Assembly (NCBI GenBank): GCA_964016885.1
Contig: OZ024742.1
Span: 234,856,001 to 234,920,000, forward strand
DNA: 64,000 nucleotides
Reading direction: 5' to 3'
Source of the DNA: Eledone cirrhosa
Lineage: Eukaryota
Shown: positions 691 to 61,978 of the stretch, one piece after another
How positions within the stretch are numbered: position 1 is the first letter of the stretch
How the letters are laid out: every line of letters starts with the position of its first letter
The notes under the pieces: generated by a model
What the model was told of the DNA's origin: nothing
Database searches by the model: none
The model's input: the letters and a program-made list of their open reading frames with translations, nothing else
Made by a program: the position numbers and the translations under genes

Positions 691-2146
691 AAGAACTCAT
701 GACCATGAGGTTGCAAAGCAAACTTTTTAAACACACCATCATGTCTCTACCTACAGTTTATATAGTAATATTAATTACTGTAAATCTTTCCACTAACCCC
801 AAAGTTTATAACAAACAATTCTTCTGTTCTATGTAGTGCTGAATTAAGTCCTTTTGAAGCCCTAAGCACTAAGATTATGGTGGCCCTCATATATAAAGTC
901 AGCAAAAACAAAAAAAAATCTGTTTCCATCTCAGAGCAAGTATTTATTAATGCCTTTGGTGTAAACAGATGTGATATATATATCTTTTTTTCTCTCTTAA
1001 TATTTATATCTAGAAATAGAATTATTGTATCACTAAGAGTTTTATTTAGAATATTCTGAATAAAAAATTTTAGGACAGAGTCTTTTTCTAAGTGATCTTT
1101 TAATCTATTCAAGCAGTACATTTAACCCTCTTGTTACTAACTCAGTCAAAACTCGCTCTGGTTCAATGCAAGGTTTATATATGGCTACCCCATATATAAA
1201 GTTTGCCAAAAACAGTTTTGTGGGGAGATTGGAATGACAAATAGATTTCATTTGAATAAAATGAAGCCCTTCTTTTCTTGATGCCCTAAGTATGTGTTTA
1301 TTTTGTTCCCCTGTTAATCCAGCCTTGCCTTTATGTAATGTTCATCTATCAGACCCTTGTTCTCCACTTTGATAAACTGTGGCATGTAGAATTAAGCACC
1401 TTGCTACAGATAAAATGAAACACTTTGATATAAACCAATGAGCTCATAAGCCATCTGCAAGCAGTTCAATACTTTTTATCCATTCAGTCACTTTACTCTT
1501 ATTTGCAATGAATTACTTTATAATAGAAAATGAATGCATGTTATTAAAAACTAGTGGACCAGTGCTGTCAATAACATTAAATGTATTCAAATTTTGGAGT
1601 CCAGAATTCATATGCCAATATATACCAGGATTACTGGTTATATGAACAACCATAAAGATAGTAAATTTGTATTTCAATAAATTTATCATTTGCATAAGAG
1701 AAATACTATAGTTTATGTTGATTACTGCCATGTGGAAGTGATTGAAAATAAAAATGATATCCTAATAATTTATTTCCAGGATATAATTACATAAATTTTC
1801 AGCATGCATGTACAAATGTATGAGTAACTTTAGAAACATAATATTTGCAGAGACAAATGTAGAATTAGAACCCAGGACCTTGTGATTGAATAGCTTACTT
1901 CTTATTGTAACAACATAACTAAGACAGGAAATGTACTGTGCGTATGTGTGTGTACGCTTATGTGTGTAAATTTTAAACAGCATGAATATACAAATACAAG
2001 TGGCATATTATTATGGTTGAATATATATTGCAATGAAGCTAATGACTTCATCTTTATTTACATCCATTTGGTTATCAAAGACATAACTGGATTTTTATTT
2101 TTATATGTGAAGCCTGATATGATGATGAATGGTTAAATTGCTGGAC

Positions 2147-6229: not shown

Positions 6230-6740
6230 TATCATCATCACTGTTTAACATTTATTTTTCCATGAGTTAGACGAGTTGTTTCATTGTGAGACAAGTCAGA
6301 TCAGATGCCCATGTCTTGTTCATACAGAACTGTTTTTGGTTTGGTTTCCAGGGCCGAATGCCCTTCCTCATACCAACCACATTTACAGCATTGACTGAGT
6401 GCTTTTTATCGTGGCCGCTCCAAAATGACCAACTGACAGGTTGGACCGGGTGCTTTTTGTTGTGTCACCAACAAGACCACCTTACTGGATGGGCCGAGTG
6501 CTTTATGTCGTGTCACCAACACAGCCCCTTACAGGGTGGGTTGGGTGATTTTCATGTCACCAGCATGACTACCTTACAGAGTAGACTGGGTGCTCTTTTG
6601 ACCAGCATGAGCATCTTCATGGTGGACTGGGGGGCTTTTGTTGTCACCAGCATGACTATCTTACAGGGTGAACTGGGAGCTTTTAGCCATTTCAGCAACA
6701 TTGTTGAGGAGCATGTCCAGCTTTCCCTGCTTGTAAGCAT
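6230..6740 (-). mobile_element. Older RTE-type 3'UTR with degenerate internal tandem repeats
   Basis: CATCATCA tail, GCCCTTCCT..ACCAACCAC motif and repeated GTCACCAGCATGAC..TTACAG..GGACTGG units. Confidence 0.6.
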
Positions 6741-7397
6741 GGGTTGGGCAAGAGAGGTGTATCAGATGTGGAAAGTGGGTGTGGGGTAGGGTATGGTGCA
6801 TGTATGAAAGATGGAGATTGGAGAGGTAGGTCTAAGGTGGAGTACTTAGGTGGAGTGTTAAGATGTGGAAGGTGTGTGTTAGAGGAGAGAAAACAGTGAT
6901 ATAGTGCAAGGTGTTGCTTGGAAAGGAGATGGACCAATGTTAGTTACAACATACAAAATAAACTTATTCACACATTTGGTTCACATGCTTAAACTGTATG
7001 TCAGGTGAGTAACAAGAAGTGTTTGACAGACAAAGAATATCTTGTTTCAGAAACCCTGTCTGGTGGTAGTGATGGAGCCATGATAAAATATTCTAAATAC
7101 ACCCTTTAAGGTGGCAGAGCTGGGAACAATAAAATGCACTCAGTACATGCTATAAAGTAGTTGGTATTAAGAAGGGTATCCAGCCATAGAAACAAAGCCA
7201 AAAATGGAATGTATGAGCAAGACATGGTCCTCTGACCTGTCATACTTCAGAATGTAACAATCTGTCTAGCTCATGTAAACATGGAAAATAGATGTTAAAT
7301 AGGGAGGATGATGAAGAAGAAATCAAACCACTACTTTATTAGGGAAAAATGGTCTTAAAACACTTGTTATGTATTCAAAGTAAAAGACACTTCTTTG

Positions 7398-7580
7398 GAT
7401 TGGCAGTATCAGTAGAGGGTCGGACACCATGCTTTCCAGCATAGTTACGTCCCTTTATGATCTGAGTTCAAATCCCGCCAAGGTTGACTTTGTCTTTCAT
7501 TCTTACGGGGTCGATAAAATAAAGTACCAGTAATGCACTGGGTAATTGCTGGTCTTGTGCCTAAAGTAGAAACAATTATT
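7398..7580 (+). mobile_element. tRNA-derived SINE (family A)
   Basis: TTGGCAGTATC head, B-box GAGTTCAAATCC, core CTTTCATYCTTACGGGGTCGATAAAATAAAGTACCAG, end GAAACAATTAT. At least 8 copies in the window. Confidence 0.9.
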
Positions 7581-7656
7581 GCCCATAAAGATCCAGCAGT
7601 CAACCACTTTTGACACTTCAATGCCTTCAATACAATCAAATAATCATTATACTCAC

Positions 7657-7728
7657 AAGATTCTCTTGAGAGGGAATCTTAAGCCAAGATGGAGCAAAGT
7701 CATGCCTTGGCACGTTACTAGTTGCCAT
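7657..7728 (-). CDS. GPBP1: Vasculin / GC-rich promoter binding protein 1 family gene, first coding exon (whole exon 7657-7763)
   Basis: Translates MATSNVPRHDFAPSWLKIPSQENL, matching the vasculin N-terminal motif (human GPBP1 MAQHDFAPAWLNFP). Strong acceptor (ttttttttattttttAG) and donor GTGAGT, phase 0. Probably co-orthologous to GPBP1 and GPBP1L1. Confidence 0.87.
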
Positions 7729-7748
7729 CAGAGAGCAGCAGTCAGCAT
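7728..7748 (-). promoter_or_regulatory. uORF MLTAAL* overlapping the main start codon (TGATG)
   Basis: ATG CTG ACT GCT GCT CTC TGA lies within exon 7657-7763. The A of TGA is the A of the main ATG. Confidence 0.6.
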
Positions 7749-7872
7749 GTTGCACAGTTAGTCCTAAAAAATAAAAAAAAGATGAAAGAAAACAAGTCAA
7801 TAAAAGATTGATTGATAAAATTTTTAATGCAATAGGTTATATGTCAGTTATTCATCAATAAATATTCATTAA

Positions 7873-8120
7873 CCTTTTCAATATCAAACTGCATGGAATT
7901 GCCCTTGGTTCTGATACTAAGCTATTTATTTTTAAATGTTTATACATATCTAAAAACCTATCATAATTTTATGTAAGAATCTAATGTTATGTTCCAAACA
8001 CCAGTTTAAGTAACAAGAAAGTTAGTTAAATTACTATATCCCTCCAAATTCTTGATTATTTTCAAAATGATTTGAAGCACATAGGCAGTATCTTTTGCTA
8101 GAAATATGGTAACTAAAAGG
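7873..8120. mobile_element. TTAA-flanked MITE (piggyBac-like)
   Basis: TTAA|CCTTTT...AAAAGG|TTAA. A related internal sequence occurs at ~2745-2900. Confidence 0.6.
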
Positions 8121-8514
8121 TTAATTTGATAAATTATTAAATTTCCTTTTTAAGTATCAGAAAAAAAAAACTTTTAACACATGCTATGTTTTAACTTTTT
8201 TTAAATACACACCTGCTAAAATATATTTAAATTGCTTTGAACATAAAGATTGTACAAAGTGAATGTAAGGGAACATAACCAAACATTACATGGTATTTTA
8301 TCTGCCACATACAAACATATTTACTGTTTAAAGAAAAATATAAAATTCTTACGATACAGAAAAATAAAGTGAAAAATATATTGAATGAGAGACACAATGA
8401 CAGTAAGATTAAGGTGCTGGAATACTTGACTATATAGTCATATCTTACAACATTCATTATAAAATGCCTGAGAGTAAAATATATATATTTCCTTACTGCA
8501 ATTTGCTTGATTTT

Positions 8515-8574
<60 letters not shown>

Positions 8575-9777
8575 AACACAGAAGCAAGTGGGGTGAAGCT
8601 TCCATTTCCACTTCATTGTTAAATGGTTAAAAGTAGAAAGACACCCAGGTGTCAAAAGCCCACTCCCATTTCAGCAATAATGAAAAACAGTAAGACTGAT
8701 TGATAAAATGTTTGATGCAATAGGTTATATGTCAGAAAATTTTTAATAGAATGTGCTTATTATTAAACAAAATTTTCTAGATAAATGGAAAAACTTTAAT
8801 GCTGCGTTTTATGTGTTATCTGGTGTTTTTAAACAGCAGCTGTATAAGCAGATCACTTATATGTAATATTATTCAATAATAAATTTATTTAGAGATGCCA
8901 TTAATTCATTCATTTCATTTCTTTGAAGTAAGCATTTAGGCTTTCTATTGAAATTATATGAAAATAAACCCTGTATGAAAAGTCAATTTTCAAATCAGAT
9001 TTAAAAAAAGAAATCAATGTTTTATTTAGAAACTGATTTCAAGTGAATTTCAAACGAATTGTAGAAACAAATCCAGAAATTTCTAAAACTCAATACAGGA
9101 AAGACAGTGCAGCACTTTCTTGTATGTGTGCAGCAAGAGAAATTTATCTAAATTGCATGTTGAAACTAATATTATGAGAGATGTTCAACAAAAGACTCCA
9201 GTGTAATTAACTATAAAAAAAAGAATTAAAAAAGTAAGGAAATTTTCATTGAACTTTGGTTTATATCTGATTAAGTTTCTTCACAAGTGTAAAATTGAGA
9301 TTGAGTAGAATAAAAAAAATGTTGGTGTTGCACTTGTCTGGTAAAGGATTTGATCTGAGATCATGTGTTGAAATTGAAACTGTATTGTAAACCATTTAAA
9401 CCAATATATTAACTTTTCTTTTCTTTTAAAAAAGTATTATATAGAATTAAGTATCAAAAAACCTTTATGACTTTTTCACTGATATAGCACTGTATTTCAA
9501 AATAATAATTAAAAAATTAAACAAAAATGTTCAATGATTTTGAATTTATAAATTCTACAAATAATTCAAAATCAACAAAAATAATTTACCAACTGTGAAC
9601 AATTTTTAATTGAAAAAGTTGATTAAAGCAGAAATTGTAATAGCTCTCTCTCTCATATATATAAGCAGAAGGGATATTCAATTTGTTGGTAATTCAACAA
9701 ATATAAATGTTTATAACTGATTCAGAGCACTCGACAGGTTTTCTAATAAATGGAAACTATATTTATAAAACCATATT

Positions 9778-9838
9778 TATTCTATTATATATATTTCAAG
9801 GGTACCAAAACTTTGGTACGCTTTCATCAGATAAAATA
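9778..9838 (-). ncRNA. Type I minimal hammerhead ribozyme motif (HH1)
   Basis: UAUUUUAU-CUGAUGA-AAGCGUACCAAA GU UUUGGUACCCUU-GAAA-UAUAUA-UA^AUAGAAUA. Intact core, stems I and II, self-complementary stem III. Confidence 0.78.
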
Positions 9839-9971
9839 CAAAGTGTGTTTTATAAATTCTGACATAGCCAAGGAACATACCTTAAAGGTTGAAGTTTTCC
9901 TTGGATAGGAATATATATATATATATATATACGATATTAACAAATGGAAACTTTATTTATAAAACCATATT

Positions 9972-10036
9972 TATTTTATTATACATATTTCAAGGACACC
10001 ACGTTAAATTATGGTGTGCTTTCATCAGACAAAATA
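9972..10036 (-). ncRNA. Type I minimal hammerhead ribozyme motif (HH2)
   Basis: UAUUUUGU-CUGAUGA-AAGCACACCAU AAUUUAAC GUGGUGUCCUU-GAAA-UAUGUA-UA^AUAAAAUA. Compensatory stem II changes relative to HH1. Confidence 0.78.
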
Positions 10037-10150
10037 TAATATTGTATATTTACTCCAAATACTTGTTGAGTGCTTTATATCAGTTATAAAATTATTTGCT
10101 TGTTGTATCACAACATTTTAAATAGAACTTTTGCATATATATATATATAT

Positions 10151-11245
10151 CATCATCATCATCGTTTAACATCCATGTTCCACGCTTGCATGGGTTTGAA
10201 CGGGAGTTTTCCCACTTGAGGCAAGAGTGGTTGTCTTGCTCGCATAGGACTGTCTGGCGGGTTTTCTACAGCTGGATGCCCTTCCTAACACCAACCACAT
10301 TTACAGTGTGGGGCTGGGAGGTTTTTACTGTGTTACCTACACGGCCACATTACAGTGTGGACTGTGTGTTTTTTTGTTGTGACACCTACACAATCTCATT
10401 TGTTTCGGCCTGGATGTTGTGGCACCAACATAACTTTACATTGAAAGGGGCGGTGTGGATGGGGTGGGGGTGGTGGGACGGGGGTGTATTTTGTTAGAGA
10501 TGCCTACTGACTGTAGTAGGTTTTACTTTGTATTTAGGTAAGGCGGGTCTTCTCTATTACTGAGTACCGCCAAAGGTCTCGGTCCAGTGACATTGTCTTG
10601 GTGAGGTGTAAGTGTGTGAGGTCGGAATTTATCAGCTCGTCCCAGGTTTTTCTGGGTCTGCCTACTCCGTGGCTACCGTCTATCTTTATTGCCCTGCACT
10701 TTTTTATACAGCTGTCGTCTTTCATGCGCATCACGTGACCATACCAACGTAGCCTTCTCTCGAGTAAACAACATCTGATCCCTCTTATTTCTAATTTTTC
10801 CCTTAGTTTGTTTATGCTTTGCCGTTCACGTATATTACTATTACACATCCAACGGAGCATGCAGGCTTCGTTCCTCTCTAGTCTGCGTATATCCTCTGCA
10901 CACAATGCCCAGGTCTCACTGCCATGCAACATTGCTGTTCGTATGCAGGCATCATACAACCTGCCTTTCATTTTTAGGGAGAACCCTTTAGCGGCTAATA
11001 GTGGTATAAGCTCTCTGAACTTTTTCCATCCAGTTCTAACTCTAGCTACTGTACTTTCAGAGCACCCTCCCCCACTGCTGATTTTGTCACCCAGGTAACG
11101 GAAGCTGTCCACTATTTCTATAGAACCCTCTGCGCAATTGAAAGAGCTAGTATTTTGTGGGCCCTTGCTGCTACTTATTGCACCAGAGCACCGGCCACAT
11201 GTAAAATCTATGTTCTTAGTTAGCTTACCTGTGATCCCACTACAT
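10151..11245 (-). mobile_element. 5'-truncated RTE LINE
   Basis: Encodes CSGITGKL...VDSFRYLG...EKTRLT*, nearly identical to the 42503 ORF end. Has the 3'UTR and (CAT)n tail. Confidence 0.93.
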
Positions 11246-11430
11246 ATAATTGTTTCTACGTTTGGCACAAGGCCAGCAATTACCCAGTGCATTACTGGTA
11301 CTTTATTTTATCGACCCCGTAAGGATGAAAGGCAAAGTTAACCTCGGCGTGATTTGAACTCAGATTGGCAAGGACCGTAACTCTATGCGTCAAAGCATGG
11401 CGTCCGACTCTCTACCGATACTGCCAATCT
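11246..11430 (-). mobile_element. SINE family A
   Basis: Reverse-complement match to 7398-7580. Confidence 0.9.
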
Positions 11431-12384
11431 AATGTTTGCAAATGTGTGAATGAGTGTGTGTGTATGTATGTGCGTATATATATATATATATAATCATCAT
11501 CATCATCATCATCATTTAACGTCCATTTTCCACGCTAGCATGATATATAATAATAGCATTGTACTTAGAAATTAGAAAATGAACACCCACAAAACCATAT
11601 ATATGTTCTCCACCTCACCAGACAGGTAATGGAGTTGCTACTTCATACATTTAGATTTGATTCTTTATATTTCCATATTTATATTGAAAAATCTGGCCAT
11701 TATGTCTTCCAATAAAAAAAAGAAGCCAGTGCACAGATACATATAGAAAAACACAGAAACACAAGACAGATACATACATATTAAACACACAGATACATAC
11801 ATATTAAACACACACACACACATATATGTAAATGTGATTAACATGATAATAAATGAAGAGGACACAAATGCAAAATTCATTTCATCTAAGCTAAATTTTT
11901 TTCATAATCAGTTGTACATTTAGTGTTATTTTCATAACTTGGTCCATCAGTTTGAATTCTCTGTACTTGCTTCTTTTTGGAGCATCTTTGCCTTTGTAGC
12001 AGTTGATGATACTGCAACAAGTCATAGGGAATGTCCTGTTTGAATACTACTAGTACATCAACAGGCATTTTCAGCATTTTACTGACAATCCTTGATAGTT
12101 TGGCTATCTTTAACTGCACTTCCGACTATATAGTTGAGTGAGTCACAGACAGCTTTATCATTAGCTTGTTTAGCGGTTTACCATATCTATCACTGATAGC
12201 GTACTGTATTCCTTACCAAAGATACTTAACCCAATAATCTTTAAAAGAATCCAATAGTGAAATACTTATCTTCAGGTGTAATTTAGCAAAGTCAATGTAC
12301 TTTATTGTTATTGCATTAAAGAGTATGATAAAAGAGTTGGACAAGAACAGAGCATCCTCAAAAGCTTCGGTTTCTCACCACCTA

Positions 12385-12800
12385 TTGAACTCTTTCAACC
12401 TTCACCTACTGTCACGCCACCACAGTGCTGGTCAGCTCAAATGCCATGCCATTCTCTTGGGATCACTAAGAATGGCTTGGATGCCACAAGTTTCCTCTTG
12501 CAGCTTGAGGAGTTGATCTGAGCGGACAGCAAATGTTCAGATGACATCATGATTATCTAAGACATGACATGTAATGACACTTCTTCCAGCAGCAACCTGG
12601 TGCAATTGGCAACAGACCCAGGACCGATCCAGGTTTCGTTGCCCAACAAGCTCAAGATCGCAAGCTGTTGAAGTATCAGCTGCTTTTCAACAAGTTTGTT
12701 ATTGAACCTGTAGCAGTGGAGACGTTTGGCATTCTGGATCCCCATACTACCACCCTACTTGCTGTTACTTTTGGGATAATGCTATCGCCATTCTGTCTGC
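12385..12800 (+). mobile_element. Decayed CRE-like non-LTR retrotransposon, restriction-like endonuclease region
   Basis: FVIEPVAVETFGILDP motif and HLLS/CHA-type remnants, similar to the better-preserved copies at 36000-36545 and 56480-57195. Confidence 0.5.
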
Positions 12801-13299
12801 TGAGACCATAACATGGCTTGTGTCTGGGGTTTTGCATACCAGAGAGTGTTCTCCCAGACTGTCTGGGTTTGTATCATTAGGATAGTGATGATATAAGTTG
12901 ATATCTATGACAACTGTCAACACACTCACACATGCATGCACACACGCACCTATAGTTCTGATAGTAATTGATCTACTGTCAGAGTAAGAAATCTTGTCAA
13001 AGGTATCCTAAAGGTTAATTTCTTTCCAAGTTTTCTCAGGTAAAATGAACTGAACATAATTCGATGGTCATGCTCTACAAGCGGAATTGTGTGGATCAAT
13101 AGGGATGATAGGTACATATACAGAGTAATGAAAAAATTTGGATAGTGACAAGAACAAATTTTAGTAATTCATTGACTTCCAAGTTGTCTGTATAAACACT
13201 GAAGTCAAACTCGTTAAATCTGTCATACTTTTAATAATTGCATTTTATTAAAAGTTTCTATCTTCAAACATCAAAGATATATGACATGATGTTTCTGGT

Positions 13300-13460
13300 G
13301 GACTGGGTTGACAGAATCATTAGAGTGTCAAACAAAACCTGGTTCTTTATAGTCTGTGTTCAAATTCTGTCAAGTTTGACTTTGACTTTCATTTTCCGGG
13401 GTTGGGGACACAAAAAGTATCAGCCAGGTACTTGAGTTGATATCAACTATTCTTTTACCA
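13300..13460 (+). mobile_element. Old diverged SINE related to family A
   Basis: GTTCAAATTC B-box and GACTTTGACTTTCATTTTCCGGGG core variant. Confidence 0.5.
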
Positions 13461-14529
13461 GCTGTGTACCTATGTAAGGAATTAGTATTATCATAGTCTT
13501 ATTTTCATTGCATTCTGTTACAGCTCTGTGTGCCTTGGGTATGTGCAGTATTGTTTTTTGCTATTGTATTGAAAGTACTCTTCATACAATGTGCAGTACC
13601 TAGTAGTGTTATTTCTGTATGTTGTACATATTTGTAAGTCCTGGGGTTTTGGTCATGTATCTGTCTTATTTTTTTTAATCATTTCCAGAGCACCTATTAT
13701 AAGGAGTGTGTCTGTTTTCTTTATCCACATTCGGGTTATGTCTACCTCCAGATCTTCATATTTGGATAATTTCCCAATTTATTTGATAGATATATTGTCA
13801 TAATGATTAGCACTTAACCCAGTTTTATTGTGTCAAATAGACAAGAGATACCTTGACAGAACATTAGCTATCTTAGGTGATATTTCTGGAAAATGATATA
13901 TCTATTGCCAAAATCCTAACTAACTGTATCCAGCCAGAACTCTCTGACCTCTTTCTGTTCAAACCGGCTGTAACTGGCCACTCATACTGATGTTATGGTA
14001 TTGTTCTCAAAATAAATAACATTAAAATCTCATAGATTCGATATTATGAGGTAAAGCTTTTACCATGAAAAAACAATAGTAAATATAGAGTAATGTAAGT
14101 GCTAAAGGGTTAAAGACACTTTCTCTGCTAAATCAGGGGTTTTAGCCTGATGGGACCCATGAGAGACTTAATCATGAGGTATTTTTTTTAGATAGTGTTG
14201 TACAGCTAGATGCTTCTCCTGGCATCAACCTTTTTAGTCACTTCTTATGACATGCAGGGATAAACAAGATAAGCAGATTCTATAATCTATATGCTTCTAA
14301 AAATGTACACTTATTACCTATAAACTATTAATCTGATGCCTTACTCACTGACTGTTGATACAGAGTAGCTGTGAATTAATTTTACTTTTAGATACTGCAC
14401 CAACAAAAGCTACCATCTGCAAAGGCTACCATCTGCTAGATGCGACTCATTAATTTCTGGTAATCATTACTGCTTTTCAGTTGTGTGGGCTCTTCAAAGG
14501 CAAACAAACCAATTAAGAAATTTGTGCAT

Positions 14530-14662
14530 CACAGAATCAATAGAGAGTTGGATAAAATGTTCTGGCACTTTACTTTCTGAGTTTAAATCCCACTGAAGTC
14601 AACTTAGCATTTCATCCTTCTGGGGCTCAATAAAATAAAGTACCAGTCCAGTACTGAGGTTG
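14530..14662 (+). mobile_element. Old diverged SINE related to family A
   Basis: CTGAGTTTAAATCC...TTTCATCCTTCTGGGG...TAAAATAAAGTACCAG. Confidence 0.6.
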
Positions 14663-15790
14663 GTTCTTCCTTTGTATCACCTTTTCTCTCTTTCTGTGTT
14701 GGTGTATTGACACAACTCATAAGTTTTGTCAATACACCAACAAGAACATCAGCCTGATTTAATGCTATTTAAATTTTATTGGTAATTTCATTTAATGTCT
14801 AAAGTTTTATACTACATATCATGCACCAATTATTAGTCTTTTTTTTAGCCATACTACAGGAGATTGTTATAGATGATTACACTTCTGATGCCTAATCGAC
14901 AGAGTTACACAGTACTAAAATATAGGTGTACCATTCTTGTAGCTGTTTTAGTAAAACATTAATATGAAAGTGGGAGAAAGTAATATGTAGTATTTCTTTT
15001 CAGTGAAACAGAGACAAGATAAATACACAGTATATAAGAAAAAGTGACTTTACCTAGTAAATGATGACCTAGAAAAGGTGTTTAACAGAATCTGCTCATG
15101 GTAAGAATTCAGAAAGCTGAAAATGGGTGAGGACTCATAAGTACTGTTCATATCTTGTATAAGAGGGCTGAATGTTAGTTCTGATTTAGCATTATATTTA
15201 GGGAGAAGATTAAGGGCTGAGGTAAGAATGCACCAGAGCTTCCTTCACTCTTAATATTTTCATTTTCTGATGGAATTTTCAATTAAGTATTTGTGTGACT
15301 GAATGTCTGTCTATTGGGATGTTTATAAGGACTATACATGAAAACCTAATTTAAGTAGCGAGATAAATTTGATAAAATAGAGAAGCTAAATTAGATTTAT
15401 TAAGTGACATATTGGTTATCATTAAAAGTGTTAAGCACCTAAAAGCATCCCAATATGTAAGTAAATGAAAATTGTGTAAATTTGTTTAGATGTTTTGCAA
15501 CCAGATGACTGTGAATTGGATCAAAGATTGAATTGAAATGACAATTTGCATTGAGAGAGATAACCAAACTGAATGTAAAGAAGTTGTACGGGTCATATAT
15601 ACAGAATTACTACAATTAGCAGCAATAACATTGTAAATGAAAATATTGAGGAAAGAGATCTGATATATGAAAAGAGTTTATGGAATTATCATAAAAAAAG
15701 TAGCAGAACAATCATCTAGAGGGCAGCATAAGCAGACAGATATGAAGATTATCAGCTTGAGTAACTACACTTCCATATTACTTTAATAAT

Positions 15791-15975
15791 TGTTTCTACT
15801 TTTGGCACAAGGCCAGCAATTACCCAGTGCATTACTGGTACTTTATTCTATCGACCCAGTAAGGATGAAAGGTAAAGTTAACCTCAACGGGATTTGAACT
15901 CAGACCATAAAGGGGCGTAACTATGCTAGAAAGCATGGCGTGCAACCGTCTACCGATACTGCCAATTCACCGCCC
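15791..15975 (-). mobile_element. Full-length SINE family A with 16-bp TSD
   Basis: ATATTACTTTAATAAT at 15775-15790 and 15977-15992. Confidence 0.92.
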
Positions 15976-16290
15976 TATATTACTTTAATAATGGAAAGTA
16001 TTATATTGCTGTCACTAACCAAGATAACAGAAACAGACCAATATGAATATTATTGACTTGAGTAACTTCACTTCACTATTTCTTTAATAATTGAAGGTAT
16101 TATATATAGCTGTCACTAACCCGGCTTGGATTAGCCAAGAGACTCTGCAGTTATTTATTCAACCATAAATATAATAAATGTAGTGACAAAATGATGTAGC
16201 CTAATAACACATACGTACACTAAAACACTCATAGGTCAGTTTTCAATGTTGACATGGGTTGAATACATATGTATGAAAGAAAAATTTATA

Positions 16291-16586
16291 CCTATATATA
16301 TATAAAAATGAGGATGTCTGTCTGTGTGTGTGTGAGTTTGAATCCGTAAAACGAGAGAAGCACCCAACCGACTGTTTTCAAACTTTACATATGTAATACT
16401 TATGTTCCAGGGAGTGTTCTGAGCAAAAAGAATTTCAAATTTTCAATGCCCTAGGGACCGCATTAGGCGATTTAGCGATCTCTCTATAATTCTTAGTCTT
16501 TCTCTTTTTAGATAGATACATACATATAACGTCGCGCCCTTATAATATCTGTCTGTATGTCTGCATTACGTCACTTCCTTGAGGAT

Positions 16587-24500: not shown

Positions 24501-26010
24501 TCATAATTACAAAATGTAAAGGACACATCATAAGTCAGAAATGTTGCCGACATAACAGTTTCAAATAAGTAAAATAGGTAACAAGAAAAAAAAAAGGTAA
24601 ACACCATGAAAGATAAACTTTAGATACAACATATTGATGTTATCTTATTTCTAGAGGCTTTTGTGGTGGATAGAAGAGGAAGAAAGACCAGGTTTCTAAA
24701 TAGATATAAAAGACTTAAGAATTAGCAGGTGGGGGACATGCTACCCCACTTGATGTAATGGTGTGTATATTTGGCTAGCAATCAAGATGTGTGTGTTTAG
24801 ATTCCCACAAGTTGAGTTTATTTCTCCACCATTATTCATTTTTGCTGATTAGTGTTTTGTTTCTATATATGCCTTACTACTACTAGCCTAAAATTAGTAA
24901 GAAACACACATAAGGGAGAGAACTGATAAAGTAGGGTTTTTACACCAATCCTTTCTTCCTTGAACTCATCAGTCTGGGGAGGAAGTCTGCAAAGATTATA
25001 TGTGCTGCCTTTTTCCTCCGACTTAGGGCATTTATTCAACTATGTATGAGTACAAGATCAAATCCACTACAGATGTTTTGTTGTATGAGAAATGAATCAA
25101 TTGATCTAACTCCTGAGAATTGTAGAAACCAAACCTTTTAATGAATGTTATACCTCAGGGATCCTACCATTTCTTTGGCACTCTTTTACATTAATAAACT
25201 ACTCCAATCATAGCCATACTGACACTGATGAAAGTAACCTACATTCGTCCTTCATCATCAATTTAAAACTTTAATAGCTTCCACAAAGGTTGCTTATAGA
25301 TCTTCCATGAACAGGGGACCAAGGAAACAGACACTGCCAAAAAAAACCCACACACATCTATGATACTGCCTTTCTCTATTTCTGACCAATACACAGCTCA
25401 AATTATATTCTTCCTTGTTTATGCCTCACCTCAATGAGGCAATTACTAGGTCTAATCTTTGACAAACATCTCATGAAGACCAGCAAATACTTTATATTTT
25501 AAACACACACATATTATAAATCTGCTTGTTTGTTCATTTGAGCATTACGCTTTAGTTAGTTAGAAAGAGGAGGAGGTGGAATAAGTGAGAGAGAGAGAGA
25601 GGTGGAGTGAGACAGACGGGGAGGTGGATTGTTAGAGAAAGAGAGAGAAGTGGAATGAGAGAGATGCGTTGGATAAAATTAAAAGAAAGAGATGTTGAAG
25701 GAATCTCATACAGCTAAAAAGTGGGAATTGGAGGCTAAACTGAAGAGGGGCAAATGTCTTCTGTAGAAGGATTTTTTTTTTTTAGTTTTTACTCACTCTT
25801 TAACTCCTCCTTTCTTTATATATAAATATATATATATATTACATAAGCCAAAACCGCATGCCACCGCAATCAGGATTTTACATATCCCCCTCTCTCTATT
25901 TGTGTGTGTGTATACGTGTGTGTATACATGTGTGTGTACGTATGTGCATGTCTGTTTGCATTCTTTAACTCTTTCCCTCAAGTTAAATAAAGCAGACAAT
26001 TTATAGTTTA

Positions 26011-26540
26011 CTAGCTGAGGTACCCAGCTTCACCTGGGTAAACATGATAGAAGACAGATAGAAGAGAAAAACGATTGTATTGGATCCATTATCTGGTTTA
26101 CAGTATGAGGTGAGACCGTGGTGAGTGTGACCAAAAAAAAAAAAGTCAAAAGTTTTCCAGATACACCAGATTCTTTGTTCTACCGTTCGTGCATAGTATA
26201 TTCTAGGTGTCCCCACTCGTAAACAACTTACATATAACTGTCCATGGGTAAAAACCGATTCTCTCACATTCAATCCTACAATTTTGAAACCCTGAGCTTT
26301 ATTTATGGTCATAGCAAAAGTGACTAACAGGGAACTGAAGTTTTTAGAATTTCAACGGCAGCTTGGTAGAGGAAAGGATAAGGGGAAACTTGGGAATAAA
26401 TGCACTTTCTCCTTGATGATTGTCTCCAAGAATAGTGGCCTCTAGGAAATGGTTCATCATCAACCCAACTGTTAAATGTGTGCCATTGCATAGACATGGC
26501 TGGTCCAGGTTTCTCAAAAGGATGATGGGAGTTCCAATTT
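26011..26540 (-). mobile_element. Helitron 3' fragment (PIF1 helicase C-terminus and terminus)
   Basis: MTINKAQG...VFTHGQLYV..RV. Terminal hairpin ACCCAG GTGAAG CTGGGT followed by CTAG|T at 26011. Confidence 0.85.
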
Positions 26541-27109
26541 TTTTATTTTATACTAGCAGAGGTACACAGCAATGCCCAGGTATTTTATGAAAGTAACAAT
26601 ATATTTTGGCACATATAAAATATTTGACCAATGAAATATGATTGCTGTATTTTAACTAAAGTAAGAATTAGCAGAATATTTATTGTCGTTTGTTCTTTGA
26701 AAGTCATAAATAAAATAAAATAAGAAATAATGTTAGCATTGTCTTACACATTTCTGTAATTCAGGTAAGTTTATTTAGTTTTTACACTGTAGCTTTCACC
26801 CACCTTTGCCTCAAAGGCTCTTGTTTGAGGGTGATTTGTTTTCTATTTCCATTAGGTATACCAACAGTTATAGTGGTTCCCATGACATACATACACACAA
26901 GTATGTGTGTGTAAAACAGTTTAGCTCTGATTTGAAAGGGATTTTCCTAATATTTCTAGCAGATCAAGTTATCACATAGAACCTTTTCTTTTTACTTCAT
27001 ACATAAATACATACATAAGATAGTAGAATGGGATTTGAAGGAAATTTGGCTGCTATTTATAACAGGTCTAGCTAGATACCACACAAAGATCTCACTTATA
27101 CTACTTTAT

Positions 27110-30100
27110 ATAGCAGAGGTACCCAGCAATGCCTGCATATTCTCCCAAAGTAAAACTATGCAGTAAAGTTGTGACTACAGAATTAGGATCTGTGTGTATT
27201 GTCAATGAATGAGGAATTATGATATTGTTCATTCCAAAGCCTCTGAATAAACAACGTTCTTGGTTTTGCTGTGGTGCTACAATGAAGAGACAATCAAGGT
27301 TTCCAACCCTTATATTACCAACATAGAGCTGATCATGTGAAAAGACAGGATCTGCTTGGTTCAACTCAACAAATTTCAATGATTGCTGTTGAGATTTATT
27401 TGATGATCATAGCAAAACTGAGTCTGATAGGAAATTGAAACCTTTGAAATTCAACTGGCAAATCAGTTGCCTTCAGAGGTATTCTGGGAATGAAACAATT
27501 GCCACCAGAAAATTTGATTGTATTGATTGCAATTTCTAGGACATTAGGCATCTATTTTTGATGATCAGTCTTGTAACATTGCAAAGTTTTGGATGATCCA
27601 GATTACAAAGTAGCATAACCGATACTCCAAGCTTCAGTATCAGATTGTGTGGAGGAATTCCTGCTAGTTCAAGACTGTTAAAAAATTCAGTTGGATAGTT
27701 TACAACCTGGTCTCGGGAAGTAATTGTGTCAACTGATTTGTAGCATCTTTTCTCTCCTGGTAAAATGTCCAGCAGCCTTCTGATGATTTCTTACACAGCA
27801 ACATTTTTCAGTGCTAAATTTACTCGTTCACAGAGTCATTTGGGATAACATTGTCTGATCTGAATGTTTGGAAACACTCTGGCAATCAGTTCTTGTTCTG
27901 TTTCAATTAACAACTGAATCTGGTCATTGGAGCCCTTTTCAACTAGCCCATTTCCCAATTTAAGTAGTTGGATGGCAAACTCACTGACACCTTCGTCATT
28001 AGTCAAGTGCACTCGCATATTGGTTGTAAGGCTCAGTCGCTGAAAGTGGGGCCGGAAATAGAATGTTTTCAGAAAGGCATTGACCTGATCAGCTTGAGTC
28101 CCTCGGGGAATTACAGGCAGAGGTTGTCTGAAATCACCAGCAAGAACCATTGTCACTTCTCCCATTAAGCAAGTATTTTCTCTCAGATCTCATTGTCCAG
28201 GCCAAAGCTTCAATTGCTCATTTATGGTTCATGATGGCTTCATCGCAAATTATCATCTTGCATGTTTTCAGGAGCTTGCCTGTGGGTGAGTTCTTCTTGA
28301 TGTTACAAAAAGATTGTTCATGCTGTGTGAGATCTATCGGTAGCTTAAACATGGAGTGTGCAGTTCTTCTTCCATCAAGAAGTGTTGCTGCAATGCCATT
28401 TGAAGCCAAAGCGAGGGCAATATGTTGCTTTTGGCAAACTTTTGCAAGTAGGAGGTTTATGAGGAATGTCTTACCTGTGCCAGCAGGAGCATTGATGATG
28501 AAAAGTCTTCCCCTATCATTTTAAATGCTTTTGATGTTGTGGTTGGCATATTTCTGGTCATCCACCAATTGAGGTTCATTTTCATCCACAAACTTACGCA
28601 AGGCTTGAATATCGTAGTTTGTATCCTGAAAAATTTCTTGTGCTAGCTCCATTTCCTCATCTGGCTCTGGCATACTGTAGTTAGCTAATGTGCTATTCAT
28701 TGCCTGAACTCAATGGGACAGATCACAGAGAGCTTGATTGTAAATTCCATATATATATATTGTCATGATGTCTTTAGGCTAGGTGTAGATAGTTGTTCAA
28801 CATTGTTTTTGTATTCCTGCCAGAGTAGGTATGCTTCATCAATTTCCCATGCTGAGTATAGTAGTAAACCACTGTCTTATTTGACTGGTGTTTCTTCTAG
28901 GGTCTTCTTTCAGTGTCCATTGTCATGCAGGAGTCCATACTGTTTACATGCTTCTTGGTATGTTGTGGACACCCTTCTTCTAAAGCACCTGAGATCCTCA
29001 AACAATATGCAGAAGTAGCCATAAATATAAACACTCTCTGTTAGTGGGGTAGACATTGTAAACATGCTCAATAGCACCACTTGCCTCGACTTCATGACTT
29101 TCCACTAAATGACCCTGCTTCCTTCGATTCCAAGTCTTGCAATTCACCCAGGTGTAGTATTTTGGGATATCAGCATACAAGAAGGATTGATCAAATTCAT
29201 CATTCTAGCAGTTTAAAAAAAGCAGTTAGAGTAGTGTCAGGTGGTGTTTGGACCAACTGATGAGCAGTGGTCTCAGTGAAGTATATTCACTGTCCGTTTT
29301 CCAAATGGACTGCTAGGTTGACCACTGTTGGGTAGCATTGATGGATATCAAATCCAAAGACCTGTCAGATAGCTTCATTGCCTGTCTGGTAGCATTTGAC
29401 CTCATCCAGCCCACCATCATTGAATTCCTTGTCAGTAACAAAGGTAGCCATGTCACTGCCCTTCTTGTGACATATAGCATTGCTTTGATAGAGCTGCAAT
29501 ACTCAACATCGATGTGAGCTTTTAGAAGTTTACACAACAATTTGATGTGTGGGACTACCCATCGATTGTCTATGGTCAGTTCTTCTCAAACTGTTAGGTT
29601 CGTAGTATTGCCTCTATGTTCAGGTAACGCCTACGATAAAGGGGGTATCCATCACAGTCAGTACAAGTTTGCTGAATAAAAACTCTAGGATAATGTTTAT
29701 TGCATTTTTTTATCTTTCATGCAGGGAGAGGCTGGGTTGTTGACTCCACATAGACAATGGATGAGTTTGGACTTGATAATTTCAAAGACCTCTGGATCAC
29801 CATCTTTATCATGCAATTCCGCTGAAATTAGATCATCTGGTCTTATCTTCTCCTTGCAACATATTAGTGTGTGAGAGTGAGAAAGTCCATTCAATAGTGG
29901 CCATCCAGGCACTAAGCTCACTTTATTCTAGGAGCCAGAGGAATATTTTTTTTTTTGCTCTTCATGGAACACCCAAGCAATGAAGTCATGTCGATCCTTC
30001 AGTTTTTGATTTTGAAATTTTTATCCAGTTTGAGTTGCATGTAAATGTAATGAAGAGATCTGGCCGACCAAATTTTCTAACATAGGCCATTGCATCTTGC

Positions 30101-30825
30101 ATATATTCATGCATGTAACGCAGTCCTCACGTGAAGCTTGATGGCAGCATGACCGACTTGCCAATTCTTGGTTCACCATCAAAATTAATGGCATCTGTAA
30201 GGTGGATGTAGTTCTCTGCCTTCGCAGGAAACCCAATGTTTCTGTTTCAATGTTGGCATACATATCCACCATGAACTGGCTGATTACTTCTTTGAATCAC
30301 AGAACTTGAAGTGATAAGCATAGAATTCTTTGCAACTGATTGATCGGCCAGTTTCTTTCCTTGTTTCTGGGTTGTTCTGCCGTAGCTGAAAAAGATACCC
30401 ATCTTGACCATTCCAAAAGATGAGCAGATATTGGAGTGAGTCATAGATCCTATGCGCTTCATATATTTGGTCCAAATGTCCACTTCATTTTGGCAAAACA
30501 ATGTCATCATTTGTGCTGTTCATTAACCATTATGATGCAACTTCTTCAGTGACAGGGGCATTGAAACTGTGTTCATGTTCTAAAGCTAGGTGTTTGTTTA
30601 CTCTGGTGGTGATTTTAGGATCACTGGTGTTGTTCATGTGCTCCAATGCATATTTAACTATACTGATGTACATGTAATGTGAGTAAAGCATTTCTTTTAA
30701 CCTCATGACTATGTAGAACTACAATCCACCATGGATAATGGTACATCTTTGTTGTGCCTGTTTCATTTCCACACATGAAGTAAACCTACACAAATTTATG
30801 AGACTCCTGTAAAAGTGGCAGGCCA
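27110..30825 (-). mobile_element. Decayed autonomous Helitron (RepHel pseudogene)
   Basis: Ordered fragments YDSLQYLLIF, IDVEYCSSIKA, YADIPKYYTW, ASNGIAATLLDGRRTAHSMFKLP, LAGDFRQPLPVI and FSHDQLYV. 3' terminus variant at 27110. Confidence 0.9.
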
Positions 30826-30829
30826 CCCA

Positions 30830-32520
30830 TTTCGTATTGTGGAGCTTTGAAATTTAGAAATAAAAGTTATAACTGTTGTAATAATGGAAAAGTTGTGCTG
30901 CCTCCATTGCAGAGACCGAGAAATCTCTTTGAAGGAGACAGCCAGGAAGCAGTTGTATTTCACAGGAACATCCGTAATTACAAGTGTGCATTTTCTTTTG
31001 TTTCATTTGGGTCAAACTTGCCTTACCACCAGACAGAGGCCCATATTGCTTTCGTATTCAGAGTCAAACATACCACATTTCTGTACTCTGCAGAAAATAC
31101 ACCACAATATAACCAGTTATATATTTTTGATGCAAATGATTGGAAGCACAGATTGGAAGCACTGCCAAATAATGACTGCTCACCGCAAGCAATGACTATG
31201 ATAAGTGAGGTGTTGCATGAATGTAATCCATATATGACATCAAACAAGATGAGCAGCAAAGAGCAAGAAGAGAAACTCATCCTATATAGAATTGTGAATT
31301 AAGATTTAGAAGAGGATCAGATATGAGATGTTACAATTTACCAATTAGCAATGAAATAGCTGTTATTTTTGTGGAGGATAGATGGCACACCACCTGTACA
31401 CAGAGATATTGTCATCTACCCTAAAGGCCATCCTCCTGAAAAAGTAACATATATTTTATACCACTTAACCTACCCTTTATTGTTTCCACATGGTGAATTT
31501 GAGTGGCATAGTGGCATGCAGAGGAATGCAGGACCCACATCCACAAAAAACTGACAATGCAAGAGTATTGCAGATACTGAATAGCATATAGAGGAGTATT
31601 TAGTGAGATACATAGGGCAGATAAATTATTTCAGCAGTAATCAGTGGATGCCTATGTGAAAGTAGAGGGATGCAGGCTTCAATATTTGAAGAACAACCAA
31701 GCCGAATTGTGAGTGGATGAAATGGTTTAATGGATTATCTAAACAGAGGAGCAGATGATAACACTAAGCCAGGAGTGCCAGTTATTTTGCCATCATCCTT
31801 CACTGGCAGCCCAAGAAACATGCATCATTACTTTCAGAATGCTACAAATGTTGCAAAATAAGGCAAGCCAGATCTTTTTATAACTTATACATGCAACCAT
31901 CTTGATATTGATTCTCTTGCTGAAGAGCAATAAGTGATTGTTGATACTGTAATTGATGCCATTCAACAGAGAAGAAAACCTGAAAGGCCTGCACATGCAT
32001 GCTTCTATGCAGGTGCGCCTGAAGGATGTGACAAAACATACCTGTTCAATATACTGATTTCTCACCTCCAGTATCATAAGTGTTGCAGTACTTGGACTAA
32101 CATAACGTCTGCAATGATGCTTGGAGGTAGAACTATGCATAATTTATTTAAACTACCTGTTCCACTAACAGGGACCAATGTGTGTAATGTATTTGGCTCA
32201 TATGACCATACCAATTACTTATAGAACCTGCATCTCATAATGCTGGACAAAGTTTCTATGATTCCTCCCTATGCAAAACATGCCATTAATAAGTGCCTTC
32301 TATACATCACAGGTGTCAAGTGTTTGGAAGGTGACCTCAGGCAAGTGCTCCCAATATTACCAGGGAGTACATGTGAAGCCACATTAGAAATATGCCTTAA
32401 AAACTCCCACCAGTGACACTTCTTTCATTTATATTAAATAATATCAGAGTAAAAGAAGATCAGGGAGAGTTTGCAAAGTGGCTAATACATCTTGGCAATG
32501 GAACAACACCTCAATTTTGA
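30830..32520 (+). mobile_element. Second decayed Helitron RepHel, internally deleted, opposite orientation
   Basis: CCNNGKVVLPPL, RNIRNYKCAFSF, QLYIFDA, YPLLFPHGE, GAPEGCDKTYL and GGRTMHNLFKLPV. Confidence 0.87.
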
Positions 32521-35999: not shown

Positions 36000-36545
36000 A
36001 AAAAAGGAGGCAGACTCTACACCACTAGTTGTGCAACTGCTCTCCACAAAAATGATGGCAAAAATATTAGTGAAGAACAGCCAGCGACACCCACTACATC
36101 ATCTATTCTATCTCAAGGGATTCCTTCCTCAGGTGGGATGCACTCCCGGTTTTGCGGAGGAGAATGTCAGTCGGAAGACCGAGGATATAAGAGATCTCGG
36201 CGACAACCGGTACGAAAAGGAAACGGTCAGTCAAGCCTTGGATATCTTCCGCATTACAGGCAGCAGAAGCCAGGTTTGTTGACGAATCGACAAGATTGGA
36301 GGCAGAGAATGTGTCGCAGCACTTGGCGTCCCAGGTTAGAGATTTTCCGCCTCTCCCACCTCGAACGGGGAAAAGGTTATCCCGTCTGGGCGCTTGCCGT
36401 CACCACGGTAAAGTCCAGTAAGATCCAGTTGTGAGCGTCATTCATGGCGCCGTGCCAAGTGAACCTAAGAGAGCGAGTGTAGTCCGAACCTGCCGTCATT
36501 GGCTCCACAACGGCATTTGTGTGGCTCACGTTTGGGAAACAATAA
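36000..36545 (-). mobile_element. CRE-clade non-LTR retrotransposon 3' fragment
   Basis: HKCRCG...GLHSLS zinc-knuckle region, then GDGKRPDGITFSPF and DTFSASN (restriction-like endonuclease). Confidence 0.8.
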
Positions 36546-36705
36546 AGATGTACTTGAGAACTGATAAAAAACAACAAAAACAAATATAGTGTCACGATCT
36601 CCCCCTCCTCAGAAAAAATACACAATGATCTCTAAAAATACACAAAGATCTCTAAAAAAGCAGTATGCCCATGATTGGAATGCTTTTGATCAGAGTTGAC
36701 ACACA

Positions 36706-36990
36706 CGGGCAGTGCCCGGATTACGAACGAGTTTCCTGCGTCGGATTTTATGTAAGCCGAAAACAGTTACGTTATCTAGAGTCAGTTAGTCAAACGTATG
36801 TATTTGTATAGTATATATTTTAACTAAAACACCCCTAAACAATAATATTGAAAAAATGTGATGTTTTGACATGCTTTGCAAAGTATATAGTTTGTTATTT
36901 ACAACCACATTGTGAGCTCGAATTTTTAATATAATTGCTTTACAGAGGTCGGTTCGTAACTATGTATGTTCGTAACATGGGAACTGTCTG
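36706..36990. mobile_element. TcMar-Tigger-like MITE
   Basis: Imperfect TIRs CGGGCAGTGCCCGGATTACGAAC / GTTCGTAACATGGGAACTGTCTG|TA. Confidence 0.6.
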
Positions 36991-37191
36991 TACGTAAATA
37001 TTTATAGCAAAGTAGTTCTATATACATATTCATATTTAAAACGATATATAATTTGAAATAATAGTATATCAAACTTTTTGGTGTAGAGAGGATGCAATTT
37101 TCCAGATCTGACTTATTAATAAACGAAATTATAAATTACATAAAGAATTTCAAAATAGACATTTTCAAAAAACAAAAACAACGCAACTTAC

Positions 37192-37400
37192 CAAAAAATG
37201 AATTTCGGGTTATTTTCTTTTGGGGGTATCCTTTTCCTCCTTTTGATTTATTTATTGTCCTGTAACTATCGAAGGAAGACGTATGTCAACGTATCCTATA
37301 TTCATCGGATCTTTTGAAATGTTTATAGTGTTCTTTATTATTTTTTGTATTGATTTTAATTGTTTTTTTAACTTCCAATAAGGTAAATACGTCAGTGAAT
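37192..37400 (-). other. Putative non-coding 5'UTR exon of the vasculin-family gene
   Basis: Consensus donor TG|GTAAGT at 37191, and a pyrimidine tract plus AG at 37401-37430. No long ORF; contains uORF MNIGYVDIRLPSIVTGQ* (37252-37305). Confidence 0.5.
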
Positions 37401-37896
37401 CTTCGACGTAAACAACAAAAACAAGAAGAAACTACCAATAACGACAATGATTGTGGTGATAGTATGACGATGATGATTATGATAATTATTATTAACTAAT
37501 GCACACTGCCTTTTAAAGAGAGAAAAAGAATTATAAACTCCAGAGTAACAAAAAAAAAAAGAAAATGTAAGAGAGAGAAAGGCAACAGAAAGACTTTATG
37601 AAGTGAGATCAATAAGGCACGCTTCGGTCATTTAAAAAACTTTTCAAGTGACCTTGTTAAGTCAATTAATTTGTTGTTATGTTTCCATTGTCTCGTGTCA
37701 GGAGTGTTTATTGAAAAATGGACATCAAATTGTGTTGTAAAGGGGTGTGGGGAAATAGATTTGAATGGATATCACAGACTTGAAGGAGATTTGTTTAACT
37801 AAACAAATATGTATGTTGTATACAAAGAATAGAATTTTATAGGCGGGGGGTTGAAAATATAAACAAAGAAATGTATATTAAATGCAGAGAGAAAGA

Positions 37897-37975
<79 letters not shown>

Positions 37976-45545: not shown

Positions 45546-45560
45546 ATATATTGTATATAT

Positions 45561-61242: not shown

Positions 61243-61719
61243 TGGTTGGGGTAGAGGGGTTGTCTGCTGATGTTAAGTGGTCTCCTGTGTTTGTTATATT
61301 CCTTGTTGTTGTACAATGTGGTTCGGGTTGGTGGTTGTAGATTGAATGGGGTGTTCCTGTATTGCGAGTATGGGTGTGTGTTTCTATGTGCCATGTTGGA
61401 TTGTGGTGTTATAGGTGGCCTACGTTGTTGGTTGTATCGTGTGGTGTGGGTTTGTTGTGTATTGTGGAAGTGAGAGTTGAGAAAATGGAAATTACCTTGC
61501 TGTCCCCTTGAAGCGGGGAAGTTGTTACATCTATCATGGTGGTGGTATCTTTTCCCTATGTTTGACGATGAGGCATCCGTGTAGTAGTTGAGTGATTTGG
61601 TATGGTGTCTCCTTGAAGGTGGAAAGTTGTAAATGTCATTCTGGGGGAGATGATTTCTAGGGTTTTTGTTCCTTTTTATGGTAGCGAGGTTAGGAAGTTC
61701 ATCTTTGGTGTGGTGCTTC
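61203..61719 (-). CDS. PLE upstream ORF (N/H/R/P-rich, 5'-truncated)
   Basis: 172 open codons overlapping the start of the RT frame. The ATG is created at the (TA)n junction. Confidence 0.45.
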
Positions 61720-61734
61720 ATATATATATATATA

Positions 61735-61972
61735 TGTAGAGCTTATATTTAATTTGTTGGGATACAATAAGCTAAAATATTTTTATAACTGATATAAAGC
61801 ACTCAACAAATTATTGGAGTAAATATACAATATATTAACAAATGGAAACTATATTTATAAAACCATATTTATTTCATTATACATATTTCAAGGGTTACCA
61901 AGGCAGATTATGGTGCGCTTTCATCACATAAAATATAATACAGATTAGTTTTATAAATAAATATTGACATAC
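61735..61972 (-). mobile_element. Third copy of the 9660-10130 hammerhead repeat (motif 61870-61935, core mutated)
   Basis: Same flanks and stems, but the core reads GUGAUGA instead of CUGAUGA. Confidence 0.75.
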
Positions 61973-61978
61973 CCATAT

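Follow-up and report, generated by a model that had tools for sequence, protein, structure and literature searches.

Hammerhead ribozymes have been described in the pseudo-LTRs of metazoan Penelope-like elements (PLEs) as type I motifs, with a long helix II and a palindromic helix III that suits dimers (Cervera and de la Pena 2014, PMC4209133). According to the accessible text of that paper, schistosome PLEs left thousands of dispersed single motifs derived from truncated elements, close pairs were mostly on opposite strands, the G10.1-C11.1 pair was highly conserved, and a single schistosome motif showed no cleavage, while dimers showed low cleavage. Among PLEs, the Hydra clade, with a C-terminal endonuclease (EN+), was described as targeting (TA)n, carrying hammerheads, and having a member in Octopus bimaculoides, Hydra-1_Obim (Craig et al. 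2021, PMC8557442). The hammerhead of the Poseidon PLE of the green anole, PAc, was reported to cut only with the protein of the element, unprocessed RNA being the main template (Frangieh et al. 2024, PMC11167929). Metazoan non-LTR retrozymes, on the other hand, are described as head-to-tail repeats of one monomer with linear and circular RNA, and axolotl retrozyme motifs cleave better as dimers (PMC7229834); a 2026 preprint (10.64898/2026.07.22.740005), the main text of which does not mention octopus, derives animal retrozymes from PLE pseudo-LTRs. In giant squid, 235 hammerhead matches were counted, as given in the accessible text of PMC6962438.

The window, i.e. the whole 64,000-nt stretch of Eledone cirrhosa DNA analyzed here, contained two hammerheads, A and B, on the minus strand, with 194 nt between their predicted cuts (Table 1). 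Both had an intact CUGAUGA/GAAA/UA core and an 8-bp stem I, a stem II of 3 bp, a C-C mismatch and 6 bp, and a self-complementary octamer in stem III; the C3-A9, G12-A15.1 and U16.1-H17 core in a three-way junction, open at stem I, assigned them to type I. They were the sole two matches of a strict scan of both strands of the window, and 200 dinucleotide shuffles of the window gave 0 matches in the same scan. Rfam detected neither of them at the gathering score over the window, and at E<=10 around the locus gave chance-level, non-hammerhead matches alone. In the monomers, stem III was limited to 2-3 bp and was missing from the minimum-energy folds, and reached 8 bp in the dimer alone. Most of what an earlier sequence-only reading had said about these motifs was thereby borne out: two type I hammerheads with intact cores and 8-bp stems I, cut positions that agreed with the predicted folds, a stem III that is weak in the monomer, and a link to PLE hammerheads with palindromic stem III. 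Its term "tandem" held for two same-strand motifs, but not for a repeat array (see below).

Table 1. Coordinates of features at the hammerhead locus and of the neighboring vasculin exon (positions in the window)
Feature	Position	Strand	Remarks
First coding exon of vasculin (GPBP1-like) gene	7763-7657	minus	ATG 7728; AG acceptor 7765-7764; GT donor 7656
(TA)4 remnant at 3' end of insertion A	9656-9663	.	sequence
Insertion A, 5'-truncated 3' end (pseudo-LTR + tail) of PLE family A, with short internal deletion	9664-9908	minus	
Hammerhead A (type I)	9838-9778	minus	predicted cut 9786/9785
(TA)10.5 microsatellite between insertions A and B	9911-9931	.	Tandem Repeats Finder; inferred insertion target
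5' piece of insertion B, inverted (tailless pseudo-LTR of family B)	9932-10042	minus	carries hammerhead B
Hammerhead B (type I)	10036-9972	minus	predicted cut 9980/9979
5-nt microhomology at inversion junction of insertion B	10038-10042	.	versus family B copies L049-L067
Tail of insertion B, element-sense	10043-10135	plus	91-95% identity to tails of L084-L089
(TA)8 at 3' end of insertion B	10135-10150	.	Tandem Repeats Finder
3' LINE fragment beside insertion B, separate from the hammerhead elements	10149-11245	minus	ends in same TA tract

We interpret the locus, with a probability of about 0.88, as two truncated insertions of different high-copy PLE families, which likely belong to the Hydra clade. 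The insertions would face each other head to head within a single TA microsatellite, in what is likely a 5'-UTR intron of the vasculin gene, where cleavage would be rare if it occurred at all. Insertion A showed 85-91% identity to the 3' ends of three ORF-bearing copies (L031, L032 and L082), in which a UTR of ~1.1-1.3 kb leads back into an RT-endonuclease ORF. Dispersed copies of family A ended at the same 3' position, in front of (TA)n, and their 5' truncation points varied. Insertion B as a whole was a plus-strand insertion (9932-10135) of a sister family to A, the inverted piece of which showed 94-99% identity to family B copies. The same layout of an inverted piece plus a tail was found at loci L039-L046, with different junctions, and a full family B element (L084) consisted of an inverted copy, a pseudo-LTR with hammerhead, a tail, the ORF, a second pseudo-LTR, a tail and (TA)n. 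By eye, the short end was present in 9 and the tail in 10 of 19 family B loci (L049-L067), some of these loci being two ends of one insertion. Exact matches to the 17-nt cores numbered 3,154 for family A and 5,450 for family B in the 3.0-Gb genome (0 for the reversed control in each case), and these 8,604 cores were split evenly over both strands.

The pair was not regarded as one unit because its halves matched dispersed copies separately, its junction was unique and its tails were opposite. When the genome was searched with 9640-10140 and the best 40 of 4,092 candidates were scored, the self-hit alone spanned both halves among the 80 matches listed. The B-(TA)n-A junction pattern gave one genomic match, the locus itself. 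The tail of A reads on the minus strand and that of B on the plus strand, and only the inverted piece of B puts hammerhead B on the minus strand. Same-strand hammerhead pairs at a spacing of 130-160 nt numbered four genome-wide, with a different architecture in each. In the first 115.6 Mb of C1, from which 178 cores were listed, there were 19 neighbors closer than 1 kb; 18 of these were opposite-strand pairs of the same family, and the remaining one was a same-strand B-(TA)n-A pile-up 287 nt apart. The repeated portion of the 194-nt stretch between the cuts was ~98 nt, and Tandem Repeats Finder called no array of a 194-nt unit at the locus, so the array implied by "tandem" was not supported. 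The side-by-side arrival of two families in one TA repeat was thus likely accidental, and the pair is likely ordinary transposon debris. The proposal of the sequence-only reading that the pair acts as a unit releasing a 194-nt RNA was not supported: the locus comprises two insertions of two families, the junction is unique, and the predicted folds pair the octamers with the (UA)10 spacer. As a separate observation, other rare same-strand hammerhead pairs (L090, L092, L093 and L094) arose from nested or stacked insertions and differed in spacing and family make-up.

Under this reading of two independent insertions, the endonuclease of the element would nick the (TA)n target, and reverse transcription would begin inside the element RNA, ~50 or ~145 nt downstream of the hammerhead cut, and stop early. 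Insertion A would have remained a simple truncated copy, while insertion B would have gained an inverted 5' piece, its hammerhead pointing by accident in the same direction as that of A. The motif itself would have been maintained because selection acts on the mobile element, and not because it acts on the vasculin locus. In the host pre-mRNA, the monomer lacks a stable stem III, and the dimer in cis has to compete with the (UA)10 spacer and with the duplex of the two tails, so that cleavage would need a partner RNA or the element protein. In copies L083 and L084, both alternative 3' ends were located on element-internal TA-rich tracts (L084:5150-6100 and 1000-1500, minus strand; L083:1050-1560), one following the end of the pseudo-LTR and the other following the tail, immediately ahead of the start of the ORF. 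This gives a hint of priming by base-pairing with the nicked (TA)n target. The Poseidon element PAc is similar in that its 3' end can be at either of two positions downstream of the hammerhead, which gives tailed and tailless copies, and in that its target is AT-rich, but it belongs to another clade, and its start sites are described as not homologous to the target (PMC11167929), in contrast to both ends on TA-rich tracts here.

The parent ORFs were open frames of 689-743 aa that had RT motifs and, towards the C-terminus, a VY...YVG...R...H region, i.e. a single ORF in which the RT precedes an endonuclease of the GIY-YIG type. DKG was replaced by DKT in all four aligned ORFs spanning the site, and also in L032. 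The CxCx5C linker was found in five of six aligned ORFs (one of the five with an adjacent deletion, the sixth being mutated), and CxxC and CxH around conserved E and N replaced CCHH in both ORFs that reached the C-terminus (L083 and L087). At the N-terminal RWK position, three ORFs had RWR, RWC and RWR, RW being retained and K absent. The parent families also had a (TA)n target and a hammerhead in the pseudo-LTR. An RT piece gave at least 140 scored relatives with 72-91% identity, from 43,429 candidates, and BLASTP of a parent RT against the Pfam-positive PLE RT of the window gave E=2e-9. Pfam found neither RVT_1 nor GIY-YIG in eight parent ORF pieces, and a PDB search with one RT piece gave nothing useful. 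Since DKT, CxCx5C, CxxC/CxH, the (TA)n target and the hammerhead match the marks in PMC8557442, families A and B likely belong to the Hydra clade, an assignment made from motifs and from homology judged by eye.

Compared with the Hydra clade as described in the accessible text of PMC8557442, the likeness covered the single RT-endonuclease ORF with DKT, CxCx5C, CxxC and CxH, the (TA)n target, the location of the hammerhead close to the 3' end, the presence of tails, and copies that are 5'-truncated and inverted; the ORF was, by eye, visibly homologous to the printed protein of Hydra-1_Obim. On the other hand, the hammerhead sequence listed there for Hydra-1_oBim was unlike those of families A and B, in which stem II is bipartite with a conserved mismatch of the C-C type and mostly A-U closing. 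RWR/RWC differed from RWK, the repeat unit of ~3.9-4.2 kb (hammerhead to hammerhead in L083 and L084) from "generally <3 kb", and the tail of ~93 nt from 30-40 bp. The metazoan PLE hammerheads in the accessible text of PMC4209133 resembled those of families A and B in being type I with a long helix II and a palindromic helix III, in their thousands of dispersed single copies left by truncated PLEs, and in close pairs that mostly lie on opposite strands, but differed from them in helix I (4-5 bp versus 8 bp), in an extra nucleotide before 10.1, which is absent here in the register used, and in G-C instead of A10.1-U11.1. Earlier publications cover hammerheads in PLEs, the Hydra clade as such and one Hydra element of octopus. 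Families A and B are apparently undescribed: a literature search, with most subscription journals outside its scope, found no paper on them.

Several other elements were found in the window. A PLE at 58946-61272 (minus strand) was rejected as the parent, with 23% RT identity and no hammerhead seen behind the ORF. The Pfam matches of this element, RVT_1 and GIY-YIG, were in two frames that overlap; its linker was Cx4CxxC, and it was Neptune-like after the description in PMC8557442. A third copy of the superfamily with a tail, at 61735-61977 (minus strand), had C3 of the core changed to G and likely represents a decayed hammerhead. Two copies of another hammerhead-like motif (C3 at 56061 and 52708, minus strand) had a fully paired stem II of 6 bp, one additional nucleotide following position 9, a short stem I and a palindromic stem III, and likely represent another PLE family.

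Within the examined loci, 89 motif contexts were reduced to 56 distinct sequences, the invariance of core and stem III being built in by the regular expression used, which fixed them. Hammerhead B was the commonest sequence (20 of 89) and hammerhead A the third commonest (5 of 89). In an alignment of 15 of the 56 distinct motifs, 93% of the cells were paired, and 13 of 19 pairs showed two-sided change; slid controls gave 34-51%, and 0 of 500 shuffles reached the observed level, a value that is not a probability since the 15 motifs were related and were picked to cover subfamilies. Family-wide covariation of stems I and II, which had been set beforehand as a check, was thus found. The compensatory changes in stem II pointed out by the sequence-only reading were real, but were inherited from the parent families and had not arisen at the locus. 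In the same way, the A-U pair closing stem II was present, but as a family-wide state and not as a lesion of this locus (A-U in 9, G-C in 3 and G-U in 3 of the 15 motifs). At the fourth-position mismatch of stem II (alignment columns 19 and 44), the 5'-side C was kept in 15 of 15 motifs even though the flanking pairs differed; this mismatch, kept also in families with a different stem I, is a candidate tertiary contact.

The window motifs differed from the column majority of their families at 0 of 61 (A) and 0 of 65 (B) positions, and the window copies outside the hammerheads at 2 of 193, 2 of 46 and 5 of 93 positions. Among 27 family A copies, variation amounted to 21/1630 (1.3%) inside the hammerhead and 300/5075 (5.9%) outside; the p value of 1e-17 for this contrast is an overstatement, because the copies share ancestry and had been selected for their similarity. 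The low variation points to a hammerhead that works as a ribozyme in the lineage of the element, and suggests that selection acted on it there, and not at the vasculin locus.

The coding exons of the neighboring gene confirmed the sense orientation of the hammerheads, which had been claimed before. Vasculin proteins of octopus mapped exon by exon on the minus strand, the strand of the hammerheads: aa 1-26 were placed at 7728-7651 by tblastn (96% identity), and the exon with the vasculin Pfam domain, 14.5 kb before the window start, showed 98% identity over 66 aa to the vasculin of Octopus sinensis and O. vulgaris. The hammerheads are located ~2 kb upstream of the first coding exon, which is preceded by a polypyrimidine/AG acceptor. 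A contig of 2,287 nt from run X4 (the kind of which is not on record) fits 7657-7770 only, and carries 725 other letters further 5'. A non-coding exon upstream is likely because of the AG acceptor and these 725 additional letters, and the hammerheads likely sit in the sense direction in a 5'-UTR intron of vasculin. The earlier term "intron" was accordingly retained as likely: the position upstream of a coding exon with an AG acceptor stood, but the upstream exon was not placed. In a comparison of the X4 contigs with 6500-16500, no piece longer than 88 nt was present among the matches listed apart from the exon, a weak hint that the upstream exon may be further out. CpG was depleted over most of 1-36 kb, and the observed/expected ratio returned to ~1 at 36.5-40.5 kb, a profile that, given mollusc biology, hints at a gene body methylated up to its promoter, although repeats also raise CpG. 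The region 36500-40500 is a candidate for the vasculin promoter and first exon.

The cross-pairing of the stem III octamers that had been proposed for the two motifs was possible, and a double hammerhead with 8+8+8 pairs, all valid, could be drawn. In the 259-nt core, the predicted structure was 6.2 kcal/mol above the ensemble, compared with 8.4 and 9.4 kcal/mol for the monomers; the gap fell to 4.2 kcal/mol when the UA spacer was held unpaired, and rose to 9.6 kcal/mol when the tails, which pair around both motifs, were added. These nearest-neighbor energies omit tertiary contacts, so that only the ranking counts and real activity could be higher. The octamer of B was predicted to pair with the (UA)10 spacer with a probability of 0.93, versus ~0.02 with the octamer of A. 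The examined copies extended across the cut site, so that their templates were uncut or re-ligated RNA. From the modeled folds, the published assays and these templates, routine cleavage of vasculin pre-mRNA is judged unlikely. The literature search yielded no report on the effect of A-U at 10.1-11.1 on the rate.

Other explanations were considered on the basis of these data. The pair may have the same accidental origin and nevertheless fold co-transcriptionally as a double hammerhead in cis, which would cut a measurable share of vasculin pre-mRNA and release a 194-nt RNA, maybe in circularized form. Both cores are intact, all pairs of the double fold are valid and it is better than the monomers in the 259-nt core; moreover, stem I has 8 bp instead of the 4-5 bp of the minimal PLE hammerheads in PMC4209133, and the help given by dimerization to axolotl retrozymes (PMC7229834) has a low but detectable counterpart for the PLE motif (PMC4209133), in the text of these papers accessible here. 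Such cleavage seems quite unlikely, in view of the competing pairing by spacer and tails, the A-U that replaces the usual G10.1-C11.1 and the uncut or re-ligated RNA from which the copies with both sides of the cut came. A more general version of this idea, in which the hammerheads of the Hydra clade are active as dimers within the transcripts of host genes and chance same-strand pile-ups in TA microsatellites cut pre-mRNA to release chimeric small circles, was judged decidedly improbable. If it were true, this locus would represent a retrozyme that is just arising, and the introns of octopus genes would be subject to a layer of cleavage made by the thousands of transposon copies, the expected sign of which is a sense-strand deficit of hammerheads in introns.

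An authentic retrozyme of two units with a mobile circular RNA of 194 nt as the monomer would fit in length with the 170-400 nt given for metazoan retrozyme monomers in the accessible text of PMC7229834, as well as in having same-strand type I hammerheads ~200 nt apart and, according to the preprint cited above, in PLE pseudo-LTR ancestry. However, the sequence between the cuts combines family B, (TA)10 and family A in a chimera that occurs once, instead of being a head-to-tail repeat of one monomer, only ~98 nt of it are repeated, and the flanks are PLE tails in opposite orientation. With its unique junction, the lack of an array and only four same-strand pairs genome-wide, this possibility is largely refuted and very improbable. 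The possibility that the pair was recruited by the host and conserved in the intron to regulate the output of vasculin mRNA is more remote still. The sense orientation in a likely 5'-UTR intron and the 0/126 differences inside the hammerheads versus 9/332 outside are in its favor, but this contrast is small and seen across the family, the copies are young (95-99% identity to relatives), many of the 8,604 exact cores in 3.0 Gb are expected in the sense direction in introns by chance, and the core of the third copy in the window (61735-61977) is mutated.

Two truncated insertions therefore remain the preferred reading, and the locus itself is ordinary, being one among thousands of truncated PLE ends. 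It points, on the other hand, to two large and young families of the Hydra clade, the hammerhead of which is distinctive in its 8-bp stem I and in a split stem II with a conserved mismatch. The numbers of motifs on the two strands are nearly equal because of inverted insertions, and a comparison of intact motifs in the sense and antisense directions in introns thus bears on the cleavage of PLE hammerheads in vivo. If the tandem were cut, it would show how two unrelated insertions can give rise to a circle like that of a retrozyme.

The tails of insertions A and B form an imperfect inverted repeat (74-76%), and in pre-mRNA an imperfect duplex of ~90 bp (9655-9742 with 10058-10144; 74-76% complementary) would enclose both hammerheads. 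From what we assume of cephalopod biology, this duplex is a possible substrate for A-to-I editing. The LINE fragment beside insertion B showed no RVT_1 or GIY-YIG match in Pfam, and shared 96% identity with the 3' part of an element at 42-45.6 kb with a 1018-aa endonuclease-RT ORF (42503-45559); both are presumably RTE-like. Broken helicase-like frames were present at 26000-32300, and we take these to be Helitron-like.
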